Part shown: positions 46,324-64,000 of the stretch, in pieces | How positions within the stretch are numbered: position 1 is the first letter of the stretch | Layout: each line of letters opens with the position of its first letter | Source: Candidatus Zhuqueibacterota bacterium | GTDB taxonomy: Bacteria; Zhuqueibacterota; Zhuqueibacteria; Thermofontimicrobiales; Thermofontimicrobiaceae | NCBI GenBank assembly: GCA_049322915.1 | Contig: JBMOPW010000016.1 | Coordinates: 259,610 to 323,609, forward strand | Length of the DNA: 64,000 nt | Direction of reading: 5' to 3' | Made by a program: the position numbers and the translations under genes | Notes under the pieces: model-generated | Seen by the model: only the letters and a program-made list of their open reading frames with translations | Told to the model about the DNA's origin: nothing | The model's database searches: none

Positions 46324-47604
46324 TCAATTTCTGTATTTGCGAATTAATGTCTCTACATAGCGGGATTTTATCTGCTGGCTGGCCAGGGCCTGTTTGATGG
46401 GCGGCAGCCTGAGGATGACTCCGAGCAGCGCAGCCATGGCGCGATGGCTCCACAGAAGGCGATTATCGAAAATTAAATGGTGCAGTTTCCCCCGTTCAAT
46501 GGCCATCATCACCACGCGATGGGTGGAGTCCAGCGGCGTGATAACCCGCTCCGGTCGCGATTCCAATCGGAGACTTTCATTGCGGCAGACTCTGACGCAG
46601 ACGCCGCAGCCTAAACAGATGGCCTCATTCACTTTGGCGATCTTTCGCTTGGGCGCGTGGGGATCATTGGCCGAGACCAGCGTCATGGCCTCCACCGGGC
46701 AGACGTTCACGCACAGACTGCATCCAATGCATTTCTCCACATCGATTTTTGGGATGAAGTTGGTGGTATGGACCGGATTCAGGATGCCAAACTTTCGGGC
46801 AGCGATCATGGCTTCGCAGCAACACCCGCAGCAATTGCAGATGAAATTGACGGACTCCCGCACATTCTCGCCGAACTGCACCAGGTTGTGTTCGTAGGCC
46901 TGCTGCAGCAAATCCAATCCCTCGGCGACGTCCACGCGCCGGGCAACCCCGTGTTTGATCAGCGACTGAGCCGAGTTATTGAACGTCATGCAGATGTCCA
47001 TGGGCGCAGCGCAGGCTTTGCCAACATGTTCCATCTTGTGCCGGCAATAGCATATCCCAACGCCCATGTGGGAGGCGGATTGAATCACATGGCTGGCGCG
47101 CTCGTAATCCAGCACGTAAAGATGCTCGTCATTCGGCAAAGCCGGCTCGTTGACAAAGGCACGGCCCAACTGCGTCTCCCCGTCGGTGAACAGGTTCTTT
47201 ATGAATTGCTCTTCCACATTGCAATATTGGTAGAACAGTTCTCCCAGAATTTTTTGGTCGACATCGCCGCGCAGCCGCATCATGGAAAATTCGAAAAAAC
47301 CAGCCATGGGCGGCGGCAACGTGTAAATCGATTGGCCATTGTCTTCCATGTCCAACAGAATGGCGCGGTCGGAGAGTTGATCCAGCAGCGTTTGCGTGCG
47401 GGTCAGATCCAATTTCCAGACCTTGCTGGCTTTCTCAGCGGTAAATGGCTTGATGGGAAGCTGCGAGACCAGTTCCGCTTCCCGCTCCGAAAACAACAGT
47501 GCCAGAATTTTGTACAACAGGTCGCTGACATACGCGCCCTGCGGAAACCGATTGAGTCGTTCAACAAGACTGCTGTAGCCTGATTTCACAGTATGATGAG
47601 CCAT
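46324..47604 (-). CDS. Multi-cluster Fe-S protein (4Fe-4S dicluster domain), paralog A
   Basis: CYCRH, ICNCCGCCCE, CIGCSLCVNVCP, CLGCGVCVRVC. Confidence 0.85.
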   Translation of the reverse strand: MAHHTVKSGYSSLVERLNRFPQGAYVSDLLYKILALLFSEREAELVSQLPIKPFTAEKASKVWKLDLTRTQTLLDQLSDRAILLDMEDNGQSIYTLPPPMAGFFEFSMMRLRGDVDQKILGELFYQYCNVEEQFIKNLFTDGETQLGRAFVNEPALPNDEHLYVLDYERASHVIQSASHMGVGICYCRHKMEHVGKACAAPMDICMTFNNSAQSLIKHGVARRVDVAEGLDLLQQAYEHNLVQFGENVRESVNFICNCCGCCCEAMIAARKFGILNPVHTTNFIPKIDVEKCIGCSLCVNVCPVEAMTLVSANDPHAPKRKIAKVNEAICLGCGVCVRVCRNESLRLESRPERVITPLDSTHRVVMMAIERGKLHHLIFDNRLLWSHRAMAALLGVILRLPPIKQALASQQIKSRYVETLIRKYRN

Positions 47605-47710: not shown

Positions 47711-48931
47711 TCACGCCTGTCGTTGCTCATTATTCGATTGTTTGCTCTTTTTAAAAGGACTTTTGAAAACCGAAGTGATCTGCTTTTTCGCCAGGTGAAT
47801 GATGTAAGGTCGCATCCGGCCTTTCTCCCGTAAAATAGCTTGAAACATGCGTCGCTTGGTTTTGGGCGGCGCGACGTAGTTGGTGCGCGGGACGAGGGAG
47901 ATAGCTCCCCGGGAACACGCTGAGATGCAGGCGCCACAGCCGAGGCATACCTGGTTGTTCACCGCGCTCACCCGTCGCGAATTCGGTGCGGATTTATCCC
48001 TGGCAATGGCGCTGACATTGCAGGCGGTGAAGCATTCGCCGCAGTAATCGCATTTCTCAGGATCGATGACGGCGATGTAACTGGATTTGGCCACGCCATC
48101 GTAGTAGCCCAGTTTCACCCCGGCCATGATTTCGCAGCAGCAGCCGCAGCAGTTGCAGATGAACGTGGGCCGATTTCGGATATTGTCCGTGATGTGGGTG
48201 AGATGAAGCGCGTGCGCCATGTCGATGATAGCCAGTAATTCCTCTTTCGTCTTCTCCACGGCGAAACCGCGCCGCGTCAGGAATCGGGCGCCGTTATTGA
48301 ACGAAATGCAGGTGCCTTCCACCGGCACGCCCTTTTTGCACGATTTGCCTTCATGCTCCCGCTTGTGCCGGCAATAGCACATGCCTGCAGCTCCGAATTC
48401 CGAGCGCATCACAATGTCACGAGCGCTCTCGTAGGAGACAATCTCGCTGCTGACCGGGATGTGCTCTTCATAAACCAGGGAACGAGTCAATTGGGTCTTG
48501 CTGCCGAAGAATTCCTTTGCCTGGCCATGTTCCGGATCATGATGAAAATACTCGGTCATCAGCCGTGCCAGTTTATCCAGGGGCAGGTCCGTTCGATTCT
48601 TCATAAAGGTGAATTCGATGAAGCCAATCACCCCGGGCATGAGCAGGTAATAGATCTCATCCCCGTAAGGCATATCGAAGATCAGACCCTTGTCGGCCAT
48701 GGTGTTGAGAACCGGCAGCAGTTCGGCCTCGTTCATTTTTGTCGCCCTGGTTAATTCAGAAATGGTGGCTTCCATGAGCGGGAATTTCGATGCGACAAAG
48801 GCCTCTGTTTCAGAGAAAAGCAGCGATAAAATTTCCCGCAGAATCTCATTGTCCACGAGACCGATGGGGTATTTATTCAGCCGGTCGATGAGCGGAACCA
48901 GCGATTTTTTCGAATGCTCAATGTGACCCAT
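47711..48931 (-). CDS. Multi-cluster Fe-S protein (4Fe-4S dicluster domain), paralog B
   Basis: CYCRH, ICNCCGCCCE, CDYCGECFTAC, CLGCGACISAC; start reassigned to ATG 48931. Confidence 0.85.
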   Translation of the reverse strand: MGHIEHSKKSLVPLIDRLNKYPIGLVDNEILREILSLLFSETEAFVASKFPLMEATISELTRATKMNEAELLPVLNTMADKGLIFDMPYGDEIYYLLMPGVIGFIEFTFMKNRTDLPLDKLARLMTEYFHHDPEHGQAKEFFGSKTQLTRSLVYEEHIPVSSEIVSYESARDIVMRSEFGAAGMCYCRHKREHEGKSCKKGVPVEGTCISFNNGARFLTRRGFAVEKTKEELLAIIDMAHALHLTHITDNIRNRPTFICNCCGCCCEIMAGVKLGYYDGVAKSSYIAVIDPEKCDYCGECFTACNVSAIARDKSAPNSRRVSAVNNQVCLGCGACISACSRGAISLVPRTNYVAPPKTKRRMFQAILREKGRMRPYIIHLAKKQITSVFKSPFKKSKQSNNEQRQA

Positions 48932-49098
48932 AGTTTTCCTGTCAGAATGTGAGGCGTGCTCATCCGATGAGATGTCCGCCCGGAACATTTCAGATGCTTC
49001 ACCCTCGGTTCAACGACGATCCACGAAGAGAGTGCGGATATTCATGGAGTGGTGATTAACGTCAGTGAAAAAAACCGCGAACAGGCGTTCATAGCAAA

Positions 49099-52078: not shown

Positions 52079-53071
52079 ATGAAAATGGTCGATGTGTTCA
52101 AACGAATTGGATTTTTTTTGGTGACGATAAGCATCACCGCCGGGATTGTCTGGCTGGTGTTCCTGGACAGGGATTCCCAGAAGGACGTGTTGGATTATTC
52201 GCTGAATTTGCTGGGGAAGAAACTCCTTGCCATGGTGCCGGACGACGAGGAAAAGAAGCAGGTGCAGAAGGTGTACGATGATTTTGTCACCCAGGCGAAA
52301 CAGCAGGAGGTGGCGCCGGAACAGATTGAAACGGTCGCTGCCAATATCCTGAACATCAGCAATACGGAAAAGACGCTGACTTCGGATCAGGCCAGGGCGC
52401 TGCTGGAGATTTCATTGGCCAAATCGGTGAAGATTGAACGAGCTGTCCCCGATTCGTTCGCGCCCCTGCCTGAGGCAGAGACAGCGCCTGTCATTGTCAT
52501 GCCTCCGACGCCCCCTGAAAATGCCGGAGTGATTGCAGAATCCTACCGGGACCTCGGAGAACGGCTGGCCATTATTTATGAGCGCAACAATGAAATGCAG
52601 GAGGCCATTCGAATCTATGCTGAAAAGGTGAAAGACCAGGATTTGTCGGTGATGTATCGCGTGGACAAAGATTTACGACTGGTGGTGGATGAGAAATACA
52701 AAGACCGATTGAAGGAACGAGAATTCACCGCGCTTGCCAGGGAATTGAATCAAGCGGAAAAAAATCGCATGATCATCTGGCACAAAGATACGACCGAACT
52801 CCTTCAAAAAGACAGGGAGAAGTTGCGCGCCGAAATTGCTTCATTGGAACAATTGAAGCAGTTGGAGAAACTGAAGCATCTGGAGAACCTGAAACAACTG
52901 GAGCAATTGGAGGAGTTTAAATCTTTCGATGCGTTGGAATCGCTGGAGTCGCTCAAGAGTCTCGAGGCATTGAAGTTTATTCCTGTATTCAGCGGCGACT
53001 CCATTCGGATTATTGTCGGCTCAGGGCGCATCGCCCCGGATACAACGGCCAGAGCGGATCGGAAACGATAG
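52079..53071 (+). CDS. Membrane-anchored hypothetical protein with (Lxx)15 tripeptide repeat
   Basis: N-terminal TM helix, Pro-rich linker, RBS aaggag; repeat at 52844-52978. Confidence 0.75.
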   Translation: MKMVDVFKRIGFFLVTISITAGIVWLVFLDRDSQKDVLDYSLNLLGKKLLAMVPDDEEKKQVQKVYDDFVTQAKQQEVAPEQIETVAANILNISNTEKTLTSDQARALLEISLAKSVKIERAVPDSFAPLPEAETAPVIVMPPTPPENAGVIAESYRDLGERLAIIYERNNEMQEAIRIYAEKVKDQDLSVMYRVDKDLRLVVDEKYKDRLKEREFTALARELNQAEKNRMIIWHKDTTELLQKDREKLRAEIASLEQLKQLEKLKHLENLKQLEQLEEFKSFDALESLESLKSLEALKFIPVFSGDSIRIIVGSGRIAPDTTARADRKR

Positions 53072-53299: not shown

Positions 53300-53352
53300 T
53301 TGACAAAACAGGCGAATTTTAGTATATTGCCACTTCTCACGAAAACGTTTAA
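53300..53352 (+). promoter_or_regulatory. BMC operon promoter with a downstream candidate LacI operator
   Basis: TTGACA-N17-TATATT (53300-53328), then AAAACGTTTAA (53342-53352). Confidence 0.65.
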
Positions 53353-53466
53353 GTAGTCGTTTGATGCATCCAGGACATTGATTCATCCCATTTTCAACCC
53401 ATGACGATTCAGGTCAACTTGTTTGTAATGCAGATGCGGATTCATATTATCACGTAAAGGGCATCT

Positions 53467-54210
53467 ATGTCAGATTTTAAAAGAGCCGCTTCGTATTGTC
53501 AGGATTGCGGCCGGTGCGAGGCGTTGTCGGACAACTTGCCGGCAGGACTGGACGATCATCTTGTGGATTTGATTGTGGATGAAGTCGTTCGGTCGATCTC
53601 TGGCAAATCAGCCCCGGCGACAGACCACCCATTTCCGCTCATTCCGCTGGGCGTATCCAACCACCATTCCCATCTGACCAAAGAAACATTCGAAAAATTA
53701 TTCGGCCCGGGCGTTGAGATTGAAAAATTTCGGCCCCTGTACCAGCCAAGTGAATTTGCTGCTGAGCAGACCATCACCATCGTGGGCTCGAAAATGCGGG
53801 CCATTCAGAATGTCCGAATTCTGGCGCCGCTGCGGTCGTATGATCAGGTGGAGTTGTCCCTCACCGACGCGGTGATGCTTGGCATTAATCCGCCCATTCG
53901 AAATTCCGGCGACTTGAAAGGCGCTGCGCCGCTCACGCTGGTTGGGCCTTACGGCTCCGTATTCCTCAAAGAATGCGCGATCATCGCCAACCGGCATGTG
54001 CACATGCCAGGCGATGTGGCTGCTCAATTTGGCGTCAGGAATGGCGACTTGTGCAAGGTGCGCATCGGTGGGCAAAAAGGGACGATTTTCGAAAATGTTC
54101 TTGTGCGCGTCAACGACGCGTGGAAGCTTCAGATGCATCTGGATACGGATGACGCCAATGCCGCTAATGTTCGCTGCGAAACAAAAGTTGAATTTATCGG
54201 AAAGATGTAG
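53467..54210 (+). CDS. pduL: Phosphate acyltransferase PduL with N-terminal Cys motif and encapsulation peptide
   Basis: GVSNHHSHL, QVELSLTDA, IIANRHVHM, MHLDTDDANA; amphipathic helix LVDLIVDEVVRSI. Confidence 0.92.
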   Translation: MSDFKRAASYCQDCGRCEALSDNLPAGLDDHLVDLIVDEVVRSISGKSAPATDHPFPLIPLGVSNHHSHLTKETFEKLFGPGVEIEKFRPLYQPSEFAAEQTITIVGSKMRAIQNVRILAPLRSYDQVELSLTDAVMLGINPPIRNSGDLKGAAPLTLVGPYGSVFLKECAIIANRHVHMPGDVAAQFGVRNGDLCKVRIGGQKGTIFENVLVRVNDAWKLQMHLDTDDANAANVRCETKVEFIGKM

Positions 54211-54218
54211 GTGATCGG

Positions 54219-54512
54219 ATGAAATTTGCCAGAGTCATCGGCCATGTGATAGCAACCCGGAAAGAGGGTAATGTTCAGGGATTGAAGTTGCTGGTAGTGC
54301 GCTACCTCGACGAGGATCTCAAAGCGACGAAGCAGTCAGCGGTGTGCGTCGATACGGTCGAGGCAAAACCGGGCGATGTGGTGCTGCTCTGTTCTTCGTC
54401 TTCGGCGCGAATGACGAAACGGACGCGCTACGTCTGCACGGATAACACCACTGTGGCCATTGTCGACTCCATTTCTTCCGGGAAAAAAACAACGTTTGAT
54501 GGCAATGCATAG
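54219..54512 (+). CDS. BMC-P vertex protein (EutN/CcmL family) 1
   Basis: M..ARVIG.V.AT.K....GLKLL, VD.V.A..GD.V, SSAR, VAIVD. Confidence 0.9.
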   Translation: MKFARVIGHVIATRKEGNVQGLKLLVVRYLDEDLKATKQSAVCVDTVEAKPGDVVLLCSSSSARMTKRTRYVCTDNTTVAIVDSISSGKKTTFDGNA

Positions 54513-54538
54513 GCTCAGTTTTTACAAAGGAATTTGAT

Positions 54539-54844
54539 TTGGATATTTCCCTGGAAAAATTAATCCAGCTTGTCACCGCGGAAGTGGTTAAGGAACTGAA
54601 AAAACAGGGCGTTCAGGTTGTGTCCGCGGATGGGCGGCCTGTCCACGGGCTCTCTGAAAATGCGCTGCGGACGAAATCTGAACAGATCAATATGGGCGCC
54701 TACAAATCGCCAGTGCTGACCGAGAACCACATTCGAAAGCTTCATGAACTGACTGGCGAAGTGATCATTCCCCGCGGGACCGTGATTACGCCCCGGGCTA
54801 AGGAGTTGATAAAACAAAAGCAATTGATAGTGACCATAAAATAG
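54539..54844 (+). CDS. Small BMC-associated protein: encapsulation peptide plus ITPxA-type domain
   Basis: LEKLIQLVTAEVVKELKKQ helix; VLTE..I...GTVITPRAKELIK; TTG start after aagga. Confidence 0.7.
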   Translation: MDISLEKLIQLVTAEVVKELKKQGVQVVSADGRPVHGLSENALRTKSEQINMGAYKSPVLTENHIRKLHELTGEVIIPRGTVITPRAKELIKQKQLIVTIK

Positions 54845-54884
54845 TAGCACGATGTGACGTTCAAATAAACAAAGGAGAAGTTGC

Positions 54885-55166
54885 ATGGCAAAGAAAGTGG
54901 CATTAGGATTTGTCGAGACGCGCGGTAATACCGGCAGCGTGCTTGCCATTGATGCAATGCTGAAAACAGCATCCGTCGATCTGGTGAAGAAAGTCGAGAT
55001 CGGCGGGGGATACGTGACAGCGATCGTCAGAGGCGAAGTCGGCGCGGTAAAATCATCCGTGGAAGCTGGCGCCGAAGCAGCGGCTCGGATAGGTGAACTG
55101 GTGTGCGCCAATGTCATCCCGTCGGCGCACGAGGATGTGTTTGATTTGATCGGTATTAAAAAATAA
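54885..55166 (+). CDS. BMC-H shell hexamer protein 1
   Basis: ALGFVETRG, DAMLKTA.V, RGEVGAVKSSV, VIPSAH. Confidence 0.95.
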   Translation: MAKKVALGFVETRGNTGSVLAIDAMLKTASVDLVKKVEIGGGYVTAIVRGEVGAVKSSVEAGAEAAARIGELVCANVIPSAHEDVFDLIGIKK

Positions 55167-55180
55167 TCAGAGGAGCGAAC

Positions 55181-55471
55181 ATGCAAGAAGCGTTAGGAGT
55201 GATAGAGACATTAGGATTCGCGACAGCCATTGAAGCTGCCGATGCAGCGGTCAAATCGGCGAACGTGCGTTTGGGCGATTGGGTGAAAGTTGGCGGCGGA
55301 AAAGTGAATATCATCCTCAGAGGCGATGTGGCCGCAGTGAAAGCCGCTGTGGAGGCCGGCGTTGCTTCGGCGTCGCAGGTTGGCGCGGTGCAGGGACAAT
55401 CGATTATTCCGCGACCCTCGCCAAAATTGACTCCGACATTTCCCATTGAAGCGAAAAAGGCGAACGAATAA
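55181..55471 (+). CDS. BMC-H shell hexamer protein 2
   Basis: ALGVIETLG, ADAAVKSANV, RGDVAAVKAAV, IIPRP. Confidence 0.95.
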   Translation: MQEALGVIETLGFATAIEAADAAVKSANVRLGDWVKVGGGKVNIILRGDVAAVKAAVEAGVASASQVGAVQGQSIIPRPSPKLTPTFPIEAKKANE

Positions 55472-55494
55472 TTCTGCAACCATAGAGGGAAATT

Positions 55495-56916
55495 GTGAAT
55501 ATATCGAACGATGAAGTTCAATCCATCGTGAACAGCGTGGTGAAAAATGTGATGAACCAGAAGACGCCAGTCGCGCGACTCCAGCCGTCCAAAGGTGACT
55601 GGGGCGTTTTTGACTCAATGCACGACGCGATTGACGCCGCGCATGCGGCGTTTACCGAGTACCGGAAATTCGACCTGCAATCCCGAAAAAAATTCACGGA
55701 TGCTGTCCGGCGAATGACCCTGGATCACAAGGAAGAGTTCTCGCGGATGACCGTGGAAGAGACAAAGATGGGCCGCGTGGACCATAAAATCAAGAAGCAC
55801 ATCAATGCGGCGGAAAACAGTCCCGGCGTGGAATTTCTTCAGCCAAAGGCCTGGTCGGGCGAGATTGGTCTGGCCATCGATGAATACTCACCCTTCGGCG
55901 TCATCGGCAATATTTCGCCGAGCACGCATCCTGTGCCGACCATGGTGAACAATATCATCATTCAGTTGGCTGCCGGAAATACCATCGCCTTCAATCCCCA
56001 TCCGGCGGCCAAAAAGGTCAATGCGCTGTGCATCCGATTGGCGAATCAGTACATGACCGGCGTTGGCGCGCCAGCCAATCTGGTGACCTGTGTGAGCGAG
56101 CCCACGCTGGAGACCGCCGAAATATTGTTCGGCCATCCCAAAGTGGAATTTCTGTCCGTGACCGGCGGCCCCATGATGGTCGAAATGGCGATGAAATATC
56201 CCAAGAAAATCATCGCGGCCGGGCCGGGCAATCCTCCGGTGCTCATCGATGAAACCGCGGATATCGAGCTGGCCGCAAAGGAAATAACCACCAGCGCCAG
56301 CTTTGACAACAATATTCTGTGCATCGCCGAAAAAGAGATTTTCGTCGTGGACAGCGTCTTCGAAAAATTTATGCGCGCGTTTCAGCAACAGGGCAATGTG
56401 CAATTGACGGCGGGTCAGATGAACCTGTTGGCGCAGAAAGCGCTGACCAAATCCGGCAGTCACTGGATCATCCACCGCGATTACGTGGGGCGCAACGCCA
56501 ATGTGCTGGCAAAAGCGCTGGGGCTGAATCTCTCGGACCAGGTTCCGCTGTTGTTCGGCGAAACCGATCGCAGTCATCCCTGGGTCGTTGCCGAGCAAAT
56601 GACGTCGTGCGTCCCGGTCGTGCGGGTGCGCGATTACGAAGACGGGGTTCAGGCTGCGTTGAAAGCGGAGCACGGCTTCAAACATACGGCCAGCATTTAT
56701 ACCAGCGATATGAAACGGGCGACCGATTACACGCGGCGTCTGGATTGCGATGTGCATACCATCAATGGCGGCACGTTGCGCGGCAATGGCAAATCGTTCG
56801 GCGAAGGCTATTTCTCGCACACCATCGCCACGCCGACCGGGGAGGGCATTTGTACGCCGCTGCATTTCACCCGGAAAAGAAGGATTATGATTGTGGGTTC
56901 GATGCGGTTTGCGTGA
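55495..56916 (+). CDS. CoA-acylating aldehyde dehydrogenase (EutE/PduP family) with N-terminal encapsulation peptide
   Basis: SPFGVIG, VTGG, AGPGNPP, catalytic SFDNNILCIAEK, TIATPTGEG; helix EVQSIVNSVVKNV; GTG start. Confidence 0.93.
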   Translation: MNISNDEVQSIVNSVVKNVMNQKTPVARLQPSKGDWGVFDSMHDAIDAAHAAFTEYRKFDLQSRKKFTDAVRRMTLDHKEEFSRMTVEETKMGRVDHKIKKHINAAENSPGVEFLQPKAWSGEIGLAIDEYSPFGVIGNISPSTHPVPTMVNNIIIQLAAGNTIAFNPHPAAKKVNALCIRLANQYMTGVGAPANLVTCVSEPTLETAEILFGHPKVEFLSVTGGPMMVEMAMKYPKKIIAAGPGNPPVLIDETADIELAAKEITTSASFDNNILCIAEKEIFVVDSVFEKFMRAFQQQGNVQLTAGQMNLLAQKALTKSGSHWIIHRDYVGRNANVLAKALGLNLSDQVPLLFGETDRSHPWVVAEQMTSCVPVVRVRDYEDGVQAALKAEHGFKHTASIYTSDMKRATDYTRRLDCDVHTINGGTLRGNGKSFGEGYFSHTIATPTGEGICTPLHFTRKRRIMIVGSMRFA

Positions 56917-56992
56917 TTCAGTTTATTTAAAAGAAAAACCACAGAGATCGCAGAGAAGGCACAGAGCGCACAAATAAAAGATAAAGAAAATA

Positions 56993-57132
56993 GTCACTAC
57001 TCAGATGACCAGGCTGAAGCATGGCGCTGGTTTAAAATCGTACCGACGCCACGATTTATCGTGGTGTTTAAAAATCAACCAGTCAGCTAACCAGTTTCAG
57101 CGGCTTCTGGAAACCGTGAGCTGAGTCGTTAC
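56993..57132. mobile_element. Possible 140-bp non-autonomous (MITE/REP-like) element
   Basis: Imperfect terminal inverted repeats gtcactactcag / ctgagtcgttac (10/12 match) and an internal hairpin acgccacgat-tt-atcgtggtgt. Confidence 0.4.
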
Positions 57133-57304
57133 AAAAAATATGAGATTTTTTTTAAGGATAAATAAACGGCAAAGGATAATTTCATTTTTATAATCTTTGC
57201 TTCAACATTGAGAACGTTGTGGTTCCTTTGAGCTTGGTGATTAATAAGAAGTAATAAGATACGAAGAAAGATAACTCAAATAAATCGATTTTAAGGAGAA
57301 GAAC

Positions 57305-57580
57305 ATGGCTGAAGTGAAAGCAATTGGCGTTTTGGAAACTCGCGGGTTTGTGCCGCTTATTGAAGGCGCCGATGCGGCTGTCAAATCGGCAGCAGTCGAC
57401 CTGGTCGAGTGGCGGCAGGTTGGCAGTGGTTACGTCTCGTTCATCGTCGAAGGCGAAGTGGCAGCGGTTCGCTCTGCAATTGAAGCAGCCGTGGCCGCTG
57501 CAACGCGCGTCGGCGAAGTGATTTCCGAACTTGTCATTCCGCGGCCGGTGGACGAGTTGAAAACGACCTTTAACTCATAA
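57305..57580 (+). CDS. BMC-H shell hexamer protein 3
   Basis: AIGVLETRG, ADAAVKSA.V, EGEVAAVRSA, VIPRP. Confidence 0.95.
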   Translation: MAEVKAIGVLETRGFVPLIEGADAAVKSAAVDLVEWRQVGSGYVSFIVEGEVAAVRSAIEAAVAAATRVGEVISELVIPRPVDELKTTFNS

Positions 57581-57594
57581 TCGCTGAGGGAAAA

Positions 57595-57876
57595 ATGATT
57601 TTTGCAAAAGTCATTGGCACCGTTGTGTCCACCCAGAAAGATGAAAATCTCAAAGGGATGAAATTGCTGCTGTGCAAAGAAGTCGACCACAACGGAAATC
57701 CACTCAACACCTACCACGTCGCTGTGGATGCAGTGCAGGCCGGGGAAGGCAGTTTTGTCCTGCTTTCGTATGGCTCGTCGGCGCGAATGACCGCGTTCAC
57801 CCGCAACGCCCCGGTCGATGCGGTGGTCATGGCCATCATCGACGATGTTCAGATCACTGAATCGATGGCAGAATGA
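57595..57876 (+). CDS. BMC-P vertex protein (EutN/CcmL family) 2
   Basis: AKVIGTVVSTQKDENLKGMKLL, VAVDAVQAG.G, GSSAR, PVDAVVMAIID. Confidence 0.95.
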   Translation: MIFAKVIGTVVSTQKDENLKGMKLLLCKEVDHNGNPLNTYHVAVDAVQAGEGSFVLLSYGSSARMTAFTRNAPVDAVVMAIIDDVQITESMAE

Positions 57877-57905
57877 ACTCAGCGAAAACGATCGAGGAAT
57901 AGCTG

Positions 57906-58169
57906 ATGAAGTTAGGAAAAATTATCGGAAAAGTCTGGGCAGACCGCAAGGTGGAGGAACTGCACGGCTGCCGGTTGCATATTATCCAGCCAATTTCAAT
58001 GGATGGCAAAAAGGTGGGGCAGCCGTTGGTTGTGGCTGATCCGCAGTCCATCGCCGGCCCGGGGGACGTCGTCGTTTTTGTCACCAACACCGACGCGACC
58101 CAGGCGTTCGATTCCGGCATGGCGCCGGTGAATGCGAGCGTTGTTGAACTTGTCGACTCAATTGATTGA
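57906..58169 (+). CDS. BMC-P vertex protein (EutN/CcmL family) 3
   Basis: GKIIGKVWADRK...L.G..L.IIQP, AGPGD.V, PVNASVVELVD. Confidence 0.88.
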   Translation: MKLGKIIGKVWADRKVEELHGCRLHIIQPISMDGKKVGQPLVVADPQSIAGPGDVVVFVTNTDATQAFDSGMAPVNASVVELVDSID

Positions 58170-58178
58170 GGCTCAACC

Positions 58179-58460
58179 ATGTTTTTAGCCAGAGTGAAAA
58201 AGATTGTAACAGCCACTGAAAAGCACACGGCGTATTCAGCGAAACGAGTTTTCATCGTGAAGCCAGTGTATCCGGATGGCAGGGACAAAGGCGAAGGCAA
58301 CGAATGGGTGGCTGTCGATTACGTCGGCGCCGGCATCGGCGATATGGTGGTATGCGGCGGAGCGCCCGGCGTTGCCGCGGATGTGTTCAAGTTGAAACGC
58401 GCTCCCATCCGAACGTTGATCATGGCGATTGTCGACCGAATTGATTATACTGATTTGTGA
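58179..58460 (+). CDS. BMC-P vertex protein (EutN/CcmL family) 4
   Basis: MFLARV..IVTATEKH, VAVDYVGAGIGD.V, PI..LIMAIVD. Confidence 0.88.
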   Translation: MFLARVKKIVTATEKHTAYSAKRVFIVKPVYPDGRDKGEGNEWVAVDYVGAGIGDMVVCGGAPGVAADVFKLKRAPIRTLIMAIVDRIDYTDL

Positions 58461-59761
58461 TCATGGATTTATTTGAAATTGCAAAAAACGGAGTTGTCGG
58501 CGCTGGCGGAGCCGGATTTCCCACGCACATCAAACTGGATTCCCGCCCGGATACATTGATCATGAACGCGGCTGAATGCGAGCCCCTGCTCCACAAAGAC
58601 ATGGAGATGCTGCGCGCCCATACAGACCGCATTCTGCGCGGATTGGAGATTGCGCTGGATCTGACCGGGGCCGCCGCCGGCATTATTGGCATTAAATCCA
58701 AGCACCGCGACGTTGTGCGCGTGCTGTCGGACAGGGCCCACAGCCGCATTCGGGTGAAAACCCTCGGCGATTTTTATCCGGCCGGCGACGAAATCACGCT
58801 GATTTACCTGACGACCGGTCGCGTTGTGCAGCCCGGGGAACTGCCGATTTCGGTGGGTTGTGTCGTTCAGAACGTGGAGACGCTGTTCAATATCGCCGGT
58901 GATACGCCGGTGGTTGAGAAATTCATTTCCGTGGCCGGAGCGGTCACTGAACCGGCGACTGTGAGAGTGCCCATTGGCATCAGCTATGCGGACGTATTGG
59001 CCAAATTTTCGATTTCAACCCCGGCGTATGTGGTTCGTTCCGGCGGACTGATGATGGGCGTTCTTGAAAAAAATCTCAATCAGGTGGTCGATAAACGGAC
59101 CGGCGCTCTCATCGTTCTGCCGGAGGATCACCACTGCGTCACGATGTACCGGCGATTTGCCACGCCCCACGATACCGACCGCATCGCCAAAGCCGGCTGC
59201 GACCAGTGCACATTCTGCACCGAATTTTGCCCGCGTTATTTGCTGGGCCATCCGGTCCGTCCGGAGACGGCCATGCGCAACCGGATGTTCACTCGCGAGG
59301 AAGAACCCCGCGTGGATCTGGGCTCTGCCTTTTGCTGCGAGTGCAATCTGTGCACCATGTACGCCTGCCCGGAAAGCCTTGATCCCAGAGGCGCCACGGT
59401 CATCGAAAAACGATATGTCATGCAGAAAAAAATGAAATGGGAAGGACGGCCGGTGTCGCCGCATCCCATGATGGATTTCCGAAAAGTGCCCACCAAAAAG
59501 CTGATGCAGCGACTGGATGTATTGAAATTTCAGGATGATGGGCCGCTGTCTGCGCTTGAGTTCGCGCCTCAGAGCGTGCGATTGCCGCTGCGCCAGCACG
59601 TTGGCGCGCCGGCAGTTCCCATTGTTGCCAGAGGAGATGTGGTACAGAAATATGATTTGATAGCGGAAGCCAACGGAAAAATTTCGGCCAATATCCACGC
59701 TTCAATTGACGGACGCGTCACGGACGTCACTCAACATGAAATTGTCATTCAGAGGAATTGA
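58457..59761 (+). CDS. PduS/RnfC-like NADH-linked flavin/Fe-S oxidoreductase
   Basis: GVVGAGGAGFPTHIK, NAAECEPLL, CDQCTFCTEFCP, CCECNLC...CP, LRQHVGAP, HASIDG. Confidence 0.9.
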   Translation: MIMDLFEIAKNGVVGAGGAGFPTHIKLDSRPDTLIMNAAECEPLLHKDMEMLRAHTDRILRGLEIALDLTGAAAGIIGIKSKHRDVVRVLSDRAHSRIRVKTLGDFYPAGDEITLIYLTTGRVVQPGELPISVGCVVQNVETLFNIAGDTPVVEKFISVAGAVTEPATVRVPIGISYADVLAKFSISTPAYVVRSGGLMMGVLEKNLNQVVDKRTGALIVLPEDHHCVTMYRRFATPHDTDRIAKAGCDQCTFCTEFCPRYLLGHPVRPETAMRNRMFTREEEPRVDLGSAFCCECNLCTMYACPESLDPRGATVIEKRYVMQKKMKWEGRPVSPHPMMDFRKVPTKKLMQRLDVLKFQDDGPLSALEFAPQSVRLPLRQHVGAPAVPIVARGDVVQKYDLIAEANGKISANIHASIDGRVTDVTQHEIVIQRN

Positions 59762-60324
59762 TGGAGCCAAAGAATTCAATCGGAATAATTGAATTGGCGA
59801 GCATTCACAAAGGTTTTGAGGTTCAGGATGCTGTGTTGAAAGTCGCCGAGGTGGAAAAGATCATCGCGCGAACCATTTGTTCCGGCAAGTATCTGATCAT
59901 CATTCGGGGCCAGGTTGCCGATGTGGAAACCTGTATCGAAACGGCGAAAGTCGTCGGCGGATTTGCCATTGTCAACGCCGTGGTCATTCCCCGCGTCGAT
60001 GAGCGCGTTTTTCCGGCCATTGCCGGCGCCAATACCCTGAATGTCGGCGAGCCTGTGGATGGCTTGCTGGTGATTGAGACGTTCTCTGTGGCATCGGCGA
60101 TCAAGGCGGCCGACTTTGCCGTGAAGGAAGCGAATATCGAACTGGTCCGGGTACACATTGCCATGGCTGTAGGCGGCAAGGGATTCGTCGTGATGACCGG
60201 CGATATGGAGGCTCTCAAATCCGCTGTGGTTCCGGCGATTGAGTACATCAAAGATGATGGTATGCTGGCGGGATACAGCCTGATCAGCCATCCCCACGAA
60301 GAGGTATTAAAAGAATTGATATAA
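59761..60324 (+). CDS. BMC-T tandem-domain shell protein (PduT-like)
   Basis: Two BMC domains (GIIE..SI.KG....DA.LK; VIETFSVA....AAD.AVK); TICSGKY at the PduT Fe-S Cys position. Confidence 0.9.
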   Translation: MEPKNSIGIIELASIHKGFEVQDAVLKVAEVEKIIARTICSGKYLIIIRGQVADVETCIETAKVVGGFAIVNAVVIPRVDERVFPAIAGANTLNVGEPVDGLLVIETFSVASAIKAADFAVKEANIELVRVHIAMAVGGKGFVVMTGDMEALKSAVVPAIEYIKDDGMLAGYSLISHPHEEVLKELI

Positions 60325-60345
60325 AATATTTTGGAGGCATTGGAG

Positions 60346-61128
60346 ATGAATATAAATACAGGTTCCGGCGAATTTGAATTGAAGCGAATGATATGCGAAA
60401 TTGGGAAAAGAATCTGGACGCGCGGCTATGTGGCTGCCAACGACGGCAATATCACGATCAAGCTGAATGAGAAAGAAATTTTGACCACGCCGACTGGTGT
60501 CAGCAAAGGATTCATGACGCCGGATATGATCATCAAAGTGAATATGGAAGGGAAAGTCCTGTCCGGCAGTTCAAAATATCGGCCGTCCAGCGAGGCGAAA
60601 ATGCACATTCAGGTGTATCAGCAACGGAAGGATGTCAATTCGGTCATCCACGCGCATCCGCCCTATTGCACGAGCTTTGCAGTCGCCGGCATTCCGCTCA
60701 ACAAATGCGTGCTGCCGGAAGCCATTCTTGTTTTAGGCGCCGTGCCAACCGCCAAATACGGTTTACCCTCCACGAAGGAAATCCCGGACGCCATTCGGCC
60801 CCACGTGGAAACGTCCGACGCGATTTTATTGGAAAATCACGGCGCCCTCACCATGGGCCCTGACATCGTTTCGGCGTACCACCGCATGGAAACGCTGGAG
60901 CACACGGCCAAGATTGTCCATCTGGCGCGACAATTGGGCAATGTGAACGTGCTTCCCAAATATGAAGTGGATCGGCTGATGGAACTCCGCGAGCAGTTCC
61001 AAATTCCGGGCCGCGTTGCCACGTGCGAATCTGCCGGCTCCTGCGCAACGTCCAATGACGGACAGCCTGCAAACGAACTCGTCCAGGACATCACCAAAAA
61101 AGTCATGGAGCGGTTGAAGAAACAATGA
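60346..61128 (+). CDS. Class II aldolase (FucA-like) with C-terminal encapsulation peptide
   Basis: DGNI, TPTGVSKG, PSSE..MH, IHAHPP, LENHG; C-terminal helix NELVQDITKKVMERL. Confidence 0.9.
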   Translation: MNINTGSGEFELKRMICEIGKRIWTRGYVAANDGNITIKLNEKEILTTPTGVSKGFMTPDMIIKVNMEGKVLSGSSKYRPSSEAKMHIQVYQQRKDVNSVIHAHPPYCTSFAVAGIPLNKCVLPEAILVLGAVPTAKYGLPSTKEIPDAIRPHVETSDAILLENHGALTMGPDIVSAYHRMETLEHTAKIVHLARQLGNVNVLPKYEVDRLMELREQFQIPGRVATCESAGSCATSNDGQPANELVQDITKKVMERLKKQ

Positions 61129-61269
61129 GCCTGACCGGGGTTGCCGCTTTCACCGATTCCTTCAATTTTCATCCATCTGATTCTATCACCGTTCCGGCTC
61201 AGATTGCAGCCCGCCCATGCAACGGCTGCATTGGCCAGAGATGCCTTTATCTTTTCAGACAGGTTTGAT

Positions 61270-62463
61270 ATGAAAATTCTCATCGCAAATCCCGGCAGCA
61301 CCTCGTATAAATGTAAGCTGTTCGATATGTCCACTATGTCGGTGCTGTTTCAGGCCGGCGTGGAGCGCATCGGCGACCGCGTCGGGATTTACAGCTATCA
61401 ATTTGCCGGTGCGGAAAAAGTGACGCAACAGCTCTCCATCCCGGATTTTACTGCGGCCGTGAATCAGACGCTGGACACGCTGCAAACCGGTTTCCCCGTC
61501 GCTGACGTGGCAGCCGTTGGATTCAAGACGGTTCATGCAAAAGGCGTGACCGGCTGCGCGCGCCTCACAGAGGACGTGCTCCGCGCTATGGAAGATTACC
61601 TGCCGCTGGCCCCGGTGCATAACCGCGTGTATTTGACCGCGATATCGGTATTCAAAAAATTGCTGCCCCAAACGCCGCTGATTGGGCTGTTCGAAACAGC
61701 GTTCCATTCCCGCATTCCCCCGGAAGCCTATCTCTATGGAATTCCGTTTGAATATTTTGAAAAATATGGCATCCGAAAATACGGTTTCCACGGGGCGTCC
61801 CATCGCTACATCGGCCAGCGCGCAAAAGAACTGTATTTCCCGTCAGCGCCATCGTGTAAGGTCATCTCGTGTCATCTGGGCGGAAGCTCCTCGGTGTGCG
61901 CCATCAAGGACGGCGTCTCCGTGGATACGTCCATGGGCATGAGTCCGCAGAGCGGTCTGCTCAATGCCACGCGCGTCGGCGATTTCGATTGCTTTGCACT
62001 GCTCTACTTGATGGAAAAAGAGAACCTCTCCATCGAGCAGGTCCGGAAAATGCTGATTTCGCGCGGCGGCGTGCTGGGTATTTCCGGCGTCAACTCCGAT
62101 TTTCGCGACGTGGAAGCAAGTATGCAGAAGGGCAGCCTGCGCGATGAACTGGCATTCGACACGTTCGCGTATTACGTGAAACGCTATATCGGCGAATACA
62201 TGGCAGTGCTGAACCGGGCGGACATTATCGTTTTCACCGGCGGAGCCGGCCAATATTCACCCGCCCTGCGCAAAGCCATTCTCCGGAATATGGAAAACAT
62301 CGGCATTGTGCTGGATGACGAGCGGAACGCGGCCAATCCCGGCGAGGGACTCATTTCTGCGGAAGATTCATCCGTGAAAATCGCCGTCATCCCCACGAAC
62401 GAAGAATGGATAGTCGCCAGGGAAGTGGAGAAAGTGATCCGGTCGCAACAGCAACCCGCTTGA
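61270..62463 (+). CDS. ackA: Acetate/propionate (acyl) kinase
   Basis: ANPGSTSYK, PLAPVHN, FETAFH, KYGFHGASH, HLGGSSS, PTNEE; start reassigned to ATG 61270. Confidence 0.9.
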   Translation: MKILIANPGSTSYKCKLFDMSTMSVLFQAGVERIGDRVGIYSYQFAGAEKVTQQLSIPDFTAAVNQTLDTLQTGFPVADVAAVGFKTVHAKGVTGCARLTEDVLRAMEDYLPLAPVHNRVYLTAISVFKKLLPQTPLIGLFETAFHSRIPPEAYLYGIPFEYFEKYGIRKYGFHGASHRYIGQRAKELYFPSAPSCKVISCHLGGSSSVCAIKDGVSVDTSMGMSPQSGLLNATRVGDFDCFALLYLMEKENLSIEQVRKMLISRGGVLGISGVNSDFRDVEASMQKGSLRDELAFDTFAYYVKRYIGEYMAVLNRADIIVFTGGAGQYSPALRKAILRNMENIGIVLDDERNAANPGEGLISAEDSSVKIAVIPTNEEWIVAREVEKVIRSQQQPA

Positions 62464-62634
62464 TTTCGGGCGGTGCCAGTCACAGCGCGACGTTCAATGA
62501 AAATTTCGACAACCCGATGTTTTTTACCCGGAATAGAAAAATCACCGTTCCAGAAATTCTGCATGTCTGAGTGAGAAACATGCGGTATGGACAGCGCCCT
62601 TCGCTGGCGGCGCTGTCTAATCCGGTAGACTGAA

Positions 62635-63663
62635 ATGAACAAGCGAAAAAAAGCCACTCTCAAAAGCATTGCTGATACAATTGGCGTTACGCCTGCGACC
62701 GTCTCCAAGGCGCTGCGGGACAGTTCAGATATTTCCGGCGAGATGCGCCGGAAGGTGAAAAACCTCGCTCAGAAAATGGGCTATCGTCCCAATCTCATGG
62801 CCCGCACATTAATCAACAAGCATAGCAATCTCTTAGGCGTCATCATTCCCGACCTGCGCATCTCGTTCATCTCCGAGACCACCCGCGGCATTTACGAACA
62901 GGCCCGGAAACGGGGGTACGTGGCGATTTTAATGGTCAACGATGAAGAGCCGGAGAACGAGCGAAGAAACCTCGAGTTCCTGTCCGACCTGCGCGTGGAC
63001 GGCATCCTGCTCAATCCTGTTTCGGGGAAGATGAATTACGCCATGTACCAGGAATTGATTGAAGAGGAAATTCCTGTGGTCTGTTACGATCGCAAATTGG
63101 ATTGCTTCGACTTTCAATCGGTGACGATCGATGACCGCGAGGCGGCGTTCAAACTGACGACGCGTCTCATTCAGGAAGGAAGAAAAAAGATCGCCTATCT
63201 GGGACCCAACGACGGTTTCTCGGTGGCTGTGGAACGATTTCAGGGATATGCGGCGGCGCTCACGGCCAATGGCCTTGCGTTCGATCCCAAGTATGTCGCC
63301 GCAACCGGGCTGGATATTCACGATAGCTATGTCGCGACGAAGAATCTGCTGAGCCGTGGATTGAAAATCGATGCCATGGTGTGCATCGGCGGGTTGGTCG
63401 CTTTCGGCGCCGGCCAGGCTGTGCTGGAATCGCGTTTGTCCATCCCGGAGGATGTCATCCTTGCCGAATTTGGCGACAACAATATTGTGGCGCGACTGGG
63501 AGTTCCGTTCTACACGATCAACCAGAATCCCTATATCATGGGACAGACCGCGGTGGATTTATTGCTGGAGAGCATTGAACGCAGGGGCGCGACCTCTGCG
63601 CCGCGGCATGTCATCATCGAGACGCAATTAATTCATCGCAACATCGGGGACTTCAGGGAATGA
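62635..63663 (+). CDS. LacI-family transcriptional regulator
   Basis: HTH TLKSIA...GV..ATVSKAL, hinge YRPN.MARTL, periplasmic-binding-like C-terminal domain. Confidence 0.93.
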   Translation: MNKRKKATLKSIADTIGVTPATVSKALRDSSDISGEMRRKVKNLAQKMGYRPNLMARTLINKHSNLLGVIIPDLRISFISETTRGIYEQARKRGYVAILMVNDEEPENERRNLEFLSDLRVDGILLNPVSGKMNYAMYQELIEEEIPVVCYDRKLDCFDFQSVTIDDREAAFKLTTRLIQEGRKKIAYLGPNDGFSVAVERFQGYAAALTANGLAFDPKYVAATGLDIHDSYVATKNLLSRGLKIDAMVCIGGLVAFGAGQAVLESRLSIPEDVILAEFGDNNIVARLGVPFYTINQNPYIMGQTAVDLLLESIERRGATSAPRHVIIETQLIHRNIGDFRE

Positions 63664-63747
63664 TGCATCCCGGAATCCGGCGGAGAAACCCGGCCGCGCG
63701 TTGCATGAGCGAATTGAGAGTAACCGATCACAGGGTGGTTAAGAATG

Positions 63748-63830
63748 ACAGGATAACAGGATGTTTGGGATAGACAGGATTAATTAACTTTAGCTCTTTA
63801 TCATGTTAATCAAAACATAATCGTGTAAAT
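63748..63830. repeat. Degenerate (G)ACAGGAT short repeats with inverted counterparts
   Basis: gacaggata acaggatg ... gacaggatt, then atcatgttaatc ... aatcgtgtaaatc, upstream of the GxxExxY gene. Confidence 0.5.
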
Positions 63831-63846
63831 CACAAGAGGCTGCGTA

Positions 63847-64000
63847 ATGGAACTTGCAAGCTTGACTGAAAATATTATTGGCTGTGCTTACAACGTATAT
63901 AACATGTTAGGATTTGGTTTTTTGGAGTCTGTTTACCCCGTGTAATAAAACAAATAGAAATTAATAGCAAGAGAAACAATAGCATATTACACGGGGTGAA
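63847..64000 (+). pseudogene. GxxExxY protein gene interrupted by a 61-bp insertion (runs off the window)
   Basis: MELASLTENIIGCAYNVYNMLGFGFLESVY, then a stop at 63943-63945 inside the insert. Confidence 0.75.
63936..63996. mobile_element. 61-bp miniature inverted-repeat element
   Basis: Perfect 12-bp terminal inverted repeats ccccgtgtaata / tattacacgggg around an AT-rich core; removing it restores GTT TAT GAA (V-Y-E). Confidence 0.7.

Follow-up and report, generated by a model that had tools for sequence, protein, structure and literature searches.

A MIC4-type aldolase microcompartment locus in Candidatus Zhuqueibacterota and its probable role in L-rhamnose breakdown

Organization of the locus

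The 64,000-nucleotide stretch analyzed here (the window) comes from a Candidatus Zhuqueibacterota bacterium (GenBank assembly GCA_049322915.1, contig JBMOPW010000016.1, here called C16, positions 259,610 to 323,609) and carries near its 3' end a bacterial microcompartment (BMC) locus whose likely signature enzyme is a class II aldolase. All 15 of the 15 open reading frames (ORFs) listed earlier lie on the plus strand, from PduL at 53467 to LacI at 63663 (Table 1), and the gaps between genes do not exceed 40 bases, save three of 388, 141, and 171 bases. Every BMC gene in the window matched Pfam families above curated cut-offs except for the one encoding a 101-aa protein. The 15-gene cluster proposed in the initial annotation is present in full, with its families confirmed by Pfam and its motifs intact, and the proposed shell inventory held as well: three BMC-H proteins with a single PF00936 domain, four BMC-P proteins with PF03319, and one PduT-like protein with a double PF00936 domain. 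No other shell genes were detected in this genome by the queries used. The best solved relative of the acylating aldehyde dehydrogenase (AldDH) is the C. phytofermentans acylating AldDH 4C3S (E 2e-101), and Cys276 and His397 are present in the alignment between them. The aldolase residues Glu88, His107, His109, and His170 are present too.

Table 1. Features of the BMC locus and the adjoining contig end, in window positions
Feature	Position	Strand	Evidence or remark
Candidate sigma-70-type promoter, TTGACA-17-TATATT	53300..53328	+	Best site of the region, 11/12 consensus matches
Candidate LacI operator, AAACGTTT core	53339..53356	+	Directly 3' of the -10 box
PduL-type phosphotransacylase, N-terminal extension with encapsulation-like helix 33-44	53467..54210	+	PF06130 (PTAC), 225.9 bits; NF011652 above cut-off
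BMC-P 1, extra pentamer	54219..54512	+	PF03319; position as MROS_0104
101-aa protein, N-terminal encapsulation-like helix and small conserved C-terminal domain	54539..54844	+	
BMC-H 1, unusual interface motifs KTAS, IPSAH	54885..55166	+	PF00936; position as mediumGrey B6D60_04925 and MROS_0102
BMC-H 2, mostly standard motifs KSAN, PRPS	55181..55471	+	PF00936; camo position
Acylating aldehyde dehydrogenase, N-terminal encapsulation-like helix	55495..56916	+	Aldedh; PRK15398 above cut-off
BMC-H 3, KSAA, PRPV	57305..57580	+	PF00936; camo position
BMC-P 2, triplet member	57595..57876	+	PF03319
BMC-P 3, triplet member	57906..58169	+	PF03319; orange-clade match B6D60_04900
BMC-P 4, triplet member	58179..58460	+	PF03319
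PduS-like flavo/Fe-S oxidoreductase, RnfC-related	58457..59761	+	Complex1_51K, Fer4_17, RnfC_N; two Cys clusters
PduT-type BMC-T, predicted pore Cys	59758..60324	+	Double PF00936; Cys41 in TICSG
Class II aldolase, C-terminal encapsulation-like helix	60331..61128 (probable start ATG 60346)	+	PF00596
Acetate/propionate-family kinase (AckA)	61270..62463 (longest ORF from 61141; start probably ATG 61270, from alignment with homologues)	+	Acetate_kinase; TIGR00016, 350.2 vs cut-off 293.4 bits
LacI-family regulator	62635..63663	+	PF00356 and PF00532; 76% identical copy in L002
First 282 bases of a 650-bp multi-copy repeat, outside the BMC	63719..64000	+	98.6% match to full copy C7:98779-99428

Encapsulation-like helices had been proposed for four proteins, and the pattern hxxhhxxhhxxh does occur outside the Pfam domains in exactly those four: PduL (residues 33-44), the 101-aa protein (9-20), the AldDH (8-19, ahead of a Pfam domain that begins at 42), and the aldolase (251-262). 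Because the pattern also matches inside the AldDH and two of the BMC-P proteins, the test is a non-specific one. Hydrophobic moment was tried as a test for encapsulation peptides and rejected, as it did not separate the helix segments from other termini. The kinase has no encapsulation helix and therefore probably lies outside the shell.

The 101-aa protein has no Pfam match and gave only a weak match to TIGR02536 (30.8 vs a cut-off of 152.6 bits). Its matches in the Atlas were unnamed clusters at 0.95, and the nearest named family, PF15953 at 0.80, is a lead only. Homologues occur in 12 loci of the related-locus set, and the protein is possibly an assembly or cargo adaptor.

Probable continuation on a second contig

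The window stops at the end of C16, inside a 650-bp multi-copy repeat, and the locus therefore probably continues beyond 63663. The repeat has a depth of about 7 to 18 times that of its flank, holds a 129-codon open stretch, and is found at the ends of about 16 contigs as well as at several internal sites; it is a main cause of breaks in this assembly and breaks the BMC locus. Presumably it resembles GxxExxY-protein elements, which a motif search did not confirm. Contig C27 opens with the last 196 bases of the repeat in the same orientation, followed by genes for a LarA-family protein, a rhamnulokinase-family kinase, an alpha-L-rhamnosidase homologue, and a trehalase-like hydrolase. In L002, the closest relative, counterparts of all four with 68-80% identity stand directly after the LacI gene. 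Depth is equal on the C16 and C27 flanks of the repeat (74.7 and 74.2, from a run that may be the source), and no public contig spans the repeat to bridge them. The two parts belong to the same genome whether joined or not.

Assignment to the catalogued type MIC4

By every feature tested (published description, gene order, and the identity of one pentamer), the window locus appears to be a member of MIC4, which Sutter et al. (2021, PMC8217296) catalogued from 15 loci in Actinobacteria, Bacteroidetes, Calditrichaeota, KSB1, Firmicutes, and Ignavibacteria. For enzymes, the MIC4 entry lists an AldDh, a phosphotransacylase (PTAC), a pfam00596 aldolase, and a pfam00871 kinase, and the window locus encodes the same four. 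The N-terminal encapsulation peptide that the entry gives for AldDh is matched by the predicted helix 8-19. MIC4 loci are described with either a single BMC-H or two mostly standard ones and one with unusual interface residues, and the window proteins fit the latter form, KSAN/PRPS and KSAA/PRPV being mostly standard vs the unusual KTAS/IPSAH. The entry further describes a BMC-P triplet (green, grey, and orange clades), to which another green one is sometimes added; the window has a triplet and an extra pentamer, as MIC4 allows. PduS and a PduT-type BMC-T keeping its pore Cys are part of the type and are likewise found here. We found no type-defining differences: the window copy adds the LacI gene and genes for LarA, kinase, and rhamnosidase that are probably linked. 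In the MIC4 entry itself no substrate is named, and the 101-aa protein does not appear.

The order of shell genes in the window equals that of KSB1 4484_87 (B6D60_04925 to 04885) and Melioribacter (MROS_0104 to 0096), which Supplementary Data 1 of PMC8217296 gives as H(mediumGrey), H(camo), gap, H(camo), P, P, P, gap, T and as P, gap, H(mediumGrey), H(camo), gap, H(camo), gap, P, P, respectively. The rows listed for Melioribacter include no BMC-T. The BMC-H genes correspond in order to B6D60_04925/04920/04910 and to MROS_0102/0101/0099. BMC-P 3 is 75% identical over 87/87 aa to B6D60_04900, the catalogued MIC4 orange-clade pentamer, which was found through the cluster of a BMC-P search match; its clade label is by identity, those of the other three BMC-P proteins by position only. 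A cluster look-up of ten BMC-H 1/3 proteins returned no catalogued accession.

A tree of 54 AldDH sequences (FastTree, midpoint root; duplicates and fragments of <380 aa dropped) placed the 22 three-BMC-H loci in one clade with support of 1.0, sister to a clade of 11 loci, most of them with a single BMC-H. This agrees with the remark in the catalogue that MIC4 occupies two places on its tree (PMC8217296), which the two sister clades would fit. The sequences used for this tree and for the aldolase tree described below contained no planctomycete or verrucomicrobial loci and no GRM5 sequences. The records of the closest named relatives read KSB1, Calditrichia, Melioribacteraceae, Cytophagia, or just "bacterium."

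The initial annotation was thus right to suggest a match to a catalogued but uncharacterized type, which is MIC4. Its description of the gene set as non-canonical did not stand, because the shell inventory and PduS/PduT are those of the published MIC4 description. A categorically new BMC type was considered and rejected, as both the MIC4 entry and the gene orders match. No characterization of MIC4 was found in the literature searched; key papers lay outside that search, so absence from print is not established. In two KSB1 papers, as far as their text was available, microcompartments are mentioned only in the reference lists.

A second arrangement in the phylum (L104, L105, L107, L110, L112, and L123-L127) has three BMC-P, PduS, PduT, PduL, AldDH, a single BMC-H, aldolase, and kinase, often with a 220-250-aa unknown protein, and 5/10 of these loci adjoin FucI, RhaA, or kinase genes. 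It is probably the single-BMC-H form of MIC4.

Relation to PVM and other BMC types

The Planctomycetes/Verrucomicrobia (PVM) BMC, as presented in PMC4207490, PMC8217296, PMC8857213, and PMC6620236, combines two BMC-H and three BMC-P with a DeoR regulator and a lactate/malate-type dehydrogenase, and occurs in two phyla only. The window locus shares with it the class II aldolase, acylating AldDH, acetate kinase, and BMC-P triplet, and the chemistry from fucose and rhamnose through lactaldehyde and lactyl-CoA to lactate, predicted here from genome context, is likely common to both. In contrast to PVM, the window shell comprises three BMC-H, four BMC-P, and a BMC-T, and the locus has LacI and PduS/PduT instead of DeoR and a lactate/malate-type dehydrogenase. 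DeoR is present in some (2/18) of the related loci of this subtype, a set drawn from a homologue search in which several loci are shortened by contig ends. The proposed distinction from PVM is therefore upheld by the BMC-H/BMC-P counts, the dehydrogenase, and the regulator: the window locus probably works as PVM does without belonging to that type. The term "PVM-like" in Axen et al. (2014, PMC4207490) included the Melioribacter roseus aldolase locus, noted as possibly close to PVM. In the 2021 catalogue, the Melioribacter shell genes MROS_0096-0104 bear the label MIC4, and PVM-like is applied to a Firmicute type whose AldDH, PTAC, and BMC-P have their nearest counterparts in GRM5 (PMC8217296).

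The catalogue describes MUF3 as having one BMC-P and occurring in Clostridia only (PMC8217296), and the Moorella-type loci L020-L032 fit that description. They carry the same four enzymes as the window locus, their aldolases are 47-56% identical to that of the window and belong to the same clade, and a rhamnulokinase-family kinase adjoins 5/8 of these loci. They differ in having one BMC-P vs four and another gene order, and their AldDH, 36-40% identical to that of the window, forms a separate clade. Genes for a sugar ABC transporter, a xylose-isomerase-like protein, a ribulokinase, and a kinase of the rhamnulokinase family flank L020-L024 and give a hint of what the MUF3-like type may use as well. 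Two further kinds of loci were seen. Reduced loci (L106, L108, L113-L115, and L128) have only BMC-P and AldDH and/or aldolase, and resemble the FRAG types of the catalogue by our own labeling. Another BMC type in the phylum (L117-L120 and L122) combines a 460-470-aa probable sugar-phosphate enzyme fusion with AldDH, PduT, and three BMC-P; a class II aldolase is often present as well. We take the latter to resemble SPU3.

Promoter and regulator

Both hexamers of the candidate promoter (Table 1) are kept in L002, as are 18/18 bases of the candidate operator, the flanks of which have diverged. We assume that this element resembles LacI-family operators. The regulators near the 18 related loci are LacI (2), DeoR (2), SorC-type (4), and RpiR (2); LacI, which the initial annotation had counted as a trait of the locus, is thus not typical of the type. 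As a distinguishing mark it was rejected, and it is a replaceable part rather than the mark of a new type.

A gene for a 330-aa membrane-anchored protein without a family lies immediately upstream of the BMC promoter here (52079-53071, plus strand) and is upstream in L002 too. Farther upstream, two tandem, similar-looking Cys-rich ferredoxin-type proteins of ~425 aa are encoded on the minus strand (46324-47604 and 47711-48988).

Sugar and lactate genes in this genome and its relatives

The genome encodes an L-rhamnose isomerase, RhaA, on C3 (630 vs a cut-off of 572 bits), the C27 kinase is closest to rhamnulokinase, and a GH78-type alpha-L-rhamnosidase is present. There are five GH29 matches in the genome, and a second alpha-L-rhamnosidase homologue (L086, C35:48860-53140) adjoins a permease, possibly a sugar importer, with homologues that flank the BMC locus in L003, L004, and L105. 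The only other class II aldolase found is AraD, beside a ribulokinase, and the BMC aldolase is therefore the sole candidate found for cleavage of rhamnulose-1-phosphate. A divergent L-fucose-isomerase-family protein of 501 aa is encoded at L103:9368-10873 (C44), standing alone with no sugar genes around it.

Among the 18 related loci, neighboring genes encode the rhamnulokinase-family kinase (11), FucI (6), RhaA or a RhaI-like protein (2), LarA (7), Lut (3), and GlcD-like proteins (4). A sugar-entry gene (kinase or fucose/rhamnose isomerase) lies near 12/18 and a lactate-handling gene (LarA, Lut, or GlcD-like) near 11/18, and such genes were found at 0/7 loci of other BMC types (SPU-like and EUT-like, both labels being our own). 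We also sampled 151 genomes of the phylum, 64 with a BMC-type AldDH and 87 without. The 18 carriers of this subtype, the window's genome included, were grouped by AldDH score alone, with the gene order of 14 also observed; the sister AldDH group numbers 32. FucI is encoded by 14 carriers, RhaA by 14, both by 10, and at least one isomerase by 18/18, with the kinase in 17/18; the corresponding figures for genomes without a BMC-type AldDH are 33/87 (isomerase) and 42/87 (kinase). RhaD above its cut-off was found in 0/18 carriers. In six of the 18, just one class II aldolase domain was seen, although four of these genomes carry FucI together with RhaA; this suggests that a single aldolase serves both sugars. 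The sets of 18 loci and 18 genomes overlap. Proteins of 427-449 aa with two tandem class II aldolase domains occur in two other genomes (G001 C57:19879-21123 and G019 C44:157-1389), and none was found in that of the window.

In a tree of 90 aldolases rooted on AraD, the window enzyme falls in a 54-member clade (support 0.978) that holds nine non-BMC aldolases beside fucI, with fucU also adjacent. The initial annotation's view that the substrate was undetermined was therefore overstated: genome context points to the methylpentoses used by PVM, quite probably L-rhamnose here and rhamnose and/or fucose in relatives.

The C27 LarA (L084:222-1502) looks intact and is closest to the Isosphaera pallida lactate racemase 9EID (E 1e-135), and the alignment keeps the D-lactate-binding residues listed in PMC11851776. 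No alcohol or lactate dehydrogenase is encoded in the window locus, and therefore PduS and the Cys-pore PduT would reoxidize NADH. A search for diol dehydratase gave no matches, and neither did its controls.

Proposed pathway and alternatives

We consider it probable that this MIC4-type metabolosome finishes the breakdown of L-rhamnose, and in most relatives also of L-fucose, by converting a sugar phosphate to lactate and ATP via shell-confined lactaldehyde. The explanation is based on gene content, gene order, motifs, the MIC4 match, and co-occurrence; the activity, shell formation, and expression of the locus are predicted. Once glycosidases had freed the sugar, isomerization (by RhaA here, and by FucI and/or RhaA in relatives) and phosphorylation by one rhamnulokinase-family kinase would yield the cytosolic ketose-1-phosphate. 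Inside the shell, the class II aldolase would then cleave rhamnulose- or fuculose-1-phosphate into dihydroxyacetone phosphate (DHAP), which would exit to glycolysis, and L-lactaldehyde. The acylating AldDH would convert lactaldehyde to lactyl-CoA and NADH, PduL would turn lactyl-CoA into lactyl-phosphate and recycle CoA, and the kinase, probably outside the shell, would produce lactate and ATP. PduS and the Cys-pore PduT would reoxidize NADH by passing electrons out. The fate of lactate may differ by lineage, either through oxidation by LutABC or through racemization by LarA and then oxidation by a GlcD-type enzyme. The general route of an aldolase metabolosome, from aldehyde through acyl-CoA and acyl-phosphate to acid and ATP, had been anticipated in the initial annotation and is borne out by the gene content and the MIC4 match.

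Several observations weigh against this reading. The aldolase scores below every NCBIfam cut-off (best OtnC 132, FucA 115, and RhaD 66 bits), so that sequence alone does not name its substrate, and eight aldolases of the same clade lie near ribulokinase-type genes. In this genome rhaA stands alone on C3, the C27 kinase is below its cut-off (476 vs 528 bits), and a canonical FucI is lacking, its one homologue being divergent (125 vs 775 bits). The join of C16 to C27 is proposed from synteny, and the far end of the repeat is found at several other contig ends too. The exact operator core GAAAACGTTT occurs at 17 sites genome-wide, none of them on C3, C27, or C35 (mismatched sites were not sought). 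Searches of this genome, which is 96% complete, found no LarB, LarC, or LarE, and the racemase may therefore lack its cofactor; LarB and LarC are present in 4/4 relatives tested, and their absence here, with that of LarE, could reflect either an assembly gap or a lost cofactor pathway. PduS/PduT are missing from three related loci (L013, L016, and L040), so the redox route is not universal. Finally, the related genomes are not independent.

It is improbable that pentoses are the main substrates, entering through the same isomerases and kinase (D-arabinose by FucI, L-lyxose by RhaA) and giving glycolaldehyde, glycolyl-CoA, and glycolate, the last removed by a GlcD-type oxidase. FucI and RhaA have side activity on D-arabinose and L-lyxose, a GlcD-like gene lies inside 4/18 related loci, a glcD-like cluster is present on C14 of the window's genome, and ribulokinase-type genes occur near three Moorella-type loci as well as the eight clade aldolases noted above, which are stand-alone. 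The linked genes here, however, are alpha-L-rhamnosidase and lactate racemase, with LutABC in other loci, and 3/4 GlcD loci also carry LarA, which fits D-lactate oxidation. Pentoses are more likely a side use of the same organelle.

A different balance of products also seems unlikely to us. For PVM it was proposed that NADH is balanced by reducing half of the lactaldehyde to 1,2-propanediol (PMC6620236, PMC8857213), and the same disproportionation, half to lactate and half to 1,2-propanediol (PMC6620236), could operate here with an alcohol dehydrogenase encoded elsewhere and PduS/PduT incidental. One Fe-ADH gene is present on C2, and the three related loci without PduS/PduT would suit this scheme. 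Neighborhood clusters and maps listed for the related loci, however, include no recurring alcohol or lactate/malate dehydrogenase gene, and PduS/PduT are inside the operon in most of these loci, where they would be the obvious substitute for the PVM dehydrogenase in NADH recycling.

It is very improbable that the aldolase acts in salvage of S-adenosylmethionine by-products, from 5-deoxyribulose-1-phosphate or methylthioribulose-1-phosphate to acetaldehyde or methylthioacetaldehyde and ending in acetate and ATP: searches of the genome turned up an MtnA-family gene and no separate PF00596 gene of the MtnB type, and the closest solved structures include the Bacillus enzyme 6BTD, which we take to be a deoxyribose-salvage aldolase, but MtnA-like neighbors occur only beside five distant stand-alone aldolases outside the window's clade (L055, L069, L070, L072, and L073) and beside none of the MIC4 loci.

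Meaning for MIC4 and the phylum

The locus itself adds only another member to MIC4. Its value lies in a concrete, testable substrate and product for a type that was catalogued without function, in a subtype that is common in the phylum (18/151 genomes). The words "microcompartment production" stand in the title of a 2019 paper on candidate division LCP-89. That study reportedly tied the compartment to fucose and rhamnose, and the sugar link for this phylum may already be in print.

If breakdown of rhamnose and fucose to lactate is indeed the function of MIC4, its shell would likely shelter the toxic aldehyde of that route, and uncultured bacteria would have a second, independent shell design for the fucose/rhamnose chemistry of PVM, in which the role of PduS/PduT could be put to the test. 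A more far-reaching reading is tentative, and we regard it as somewhat doubtful: MIC4 may be a purely oxidative methylpentose organelle, in which one aldolase serves both rhamnulose-1-phosphate and fuculose-1-phosphate, all lactaldehyde becomes lactate and ATP, NADH is handled by PduS/PduT electron export and not by propanediol formation, and the lactate modules (LutABC, or LarA and a GlcD-type dehydrogenase) are interchangeable. If true, this would give PduS/PduT a testable role in a cobalamin-free compartment and KSB1-type bacteria would be widespread users of deoxy-sugars from plants and algae.

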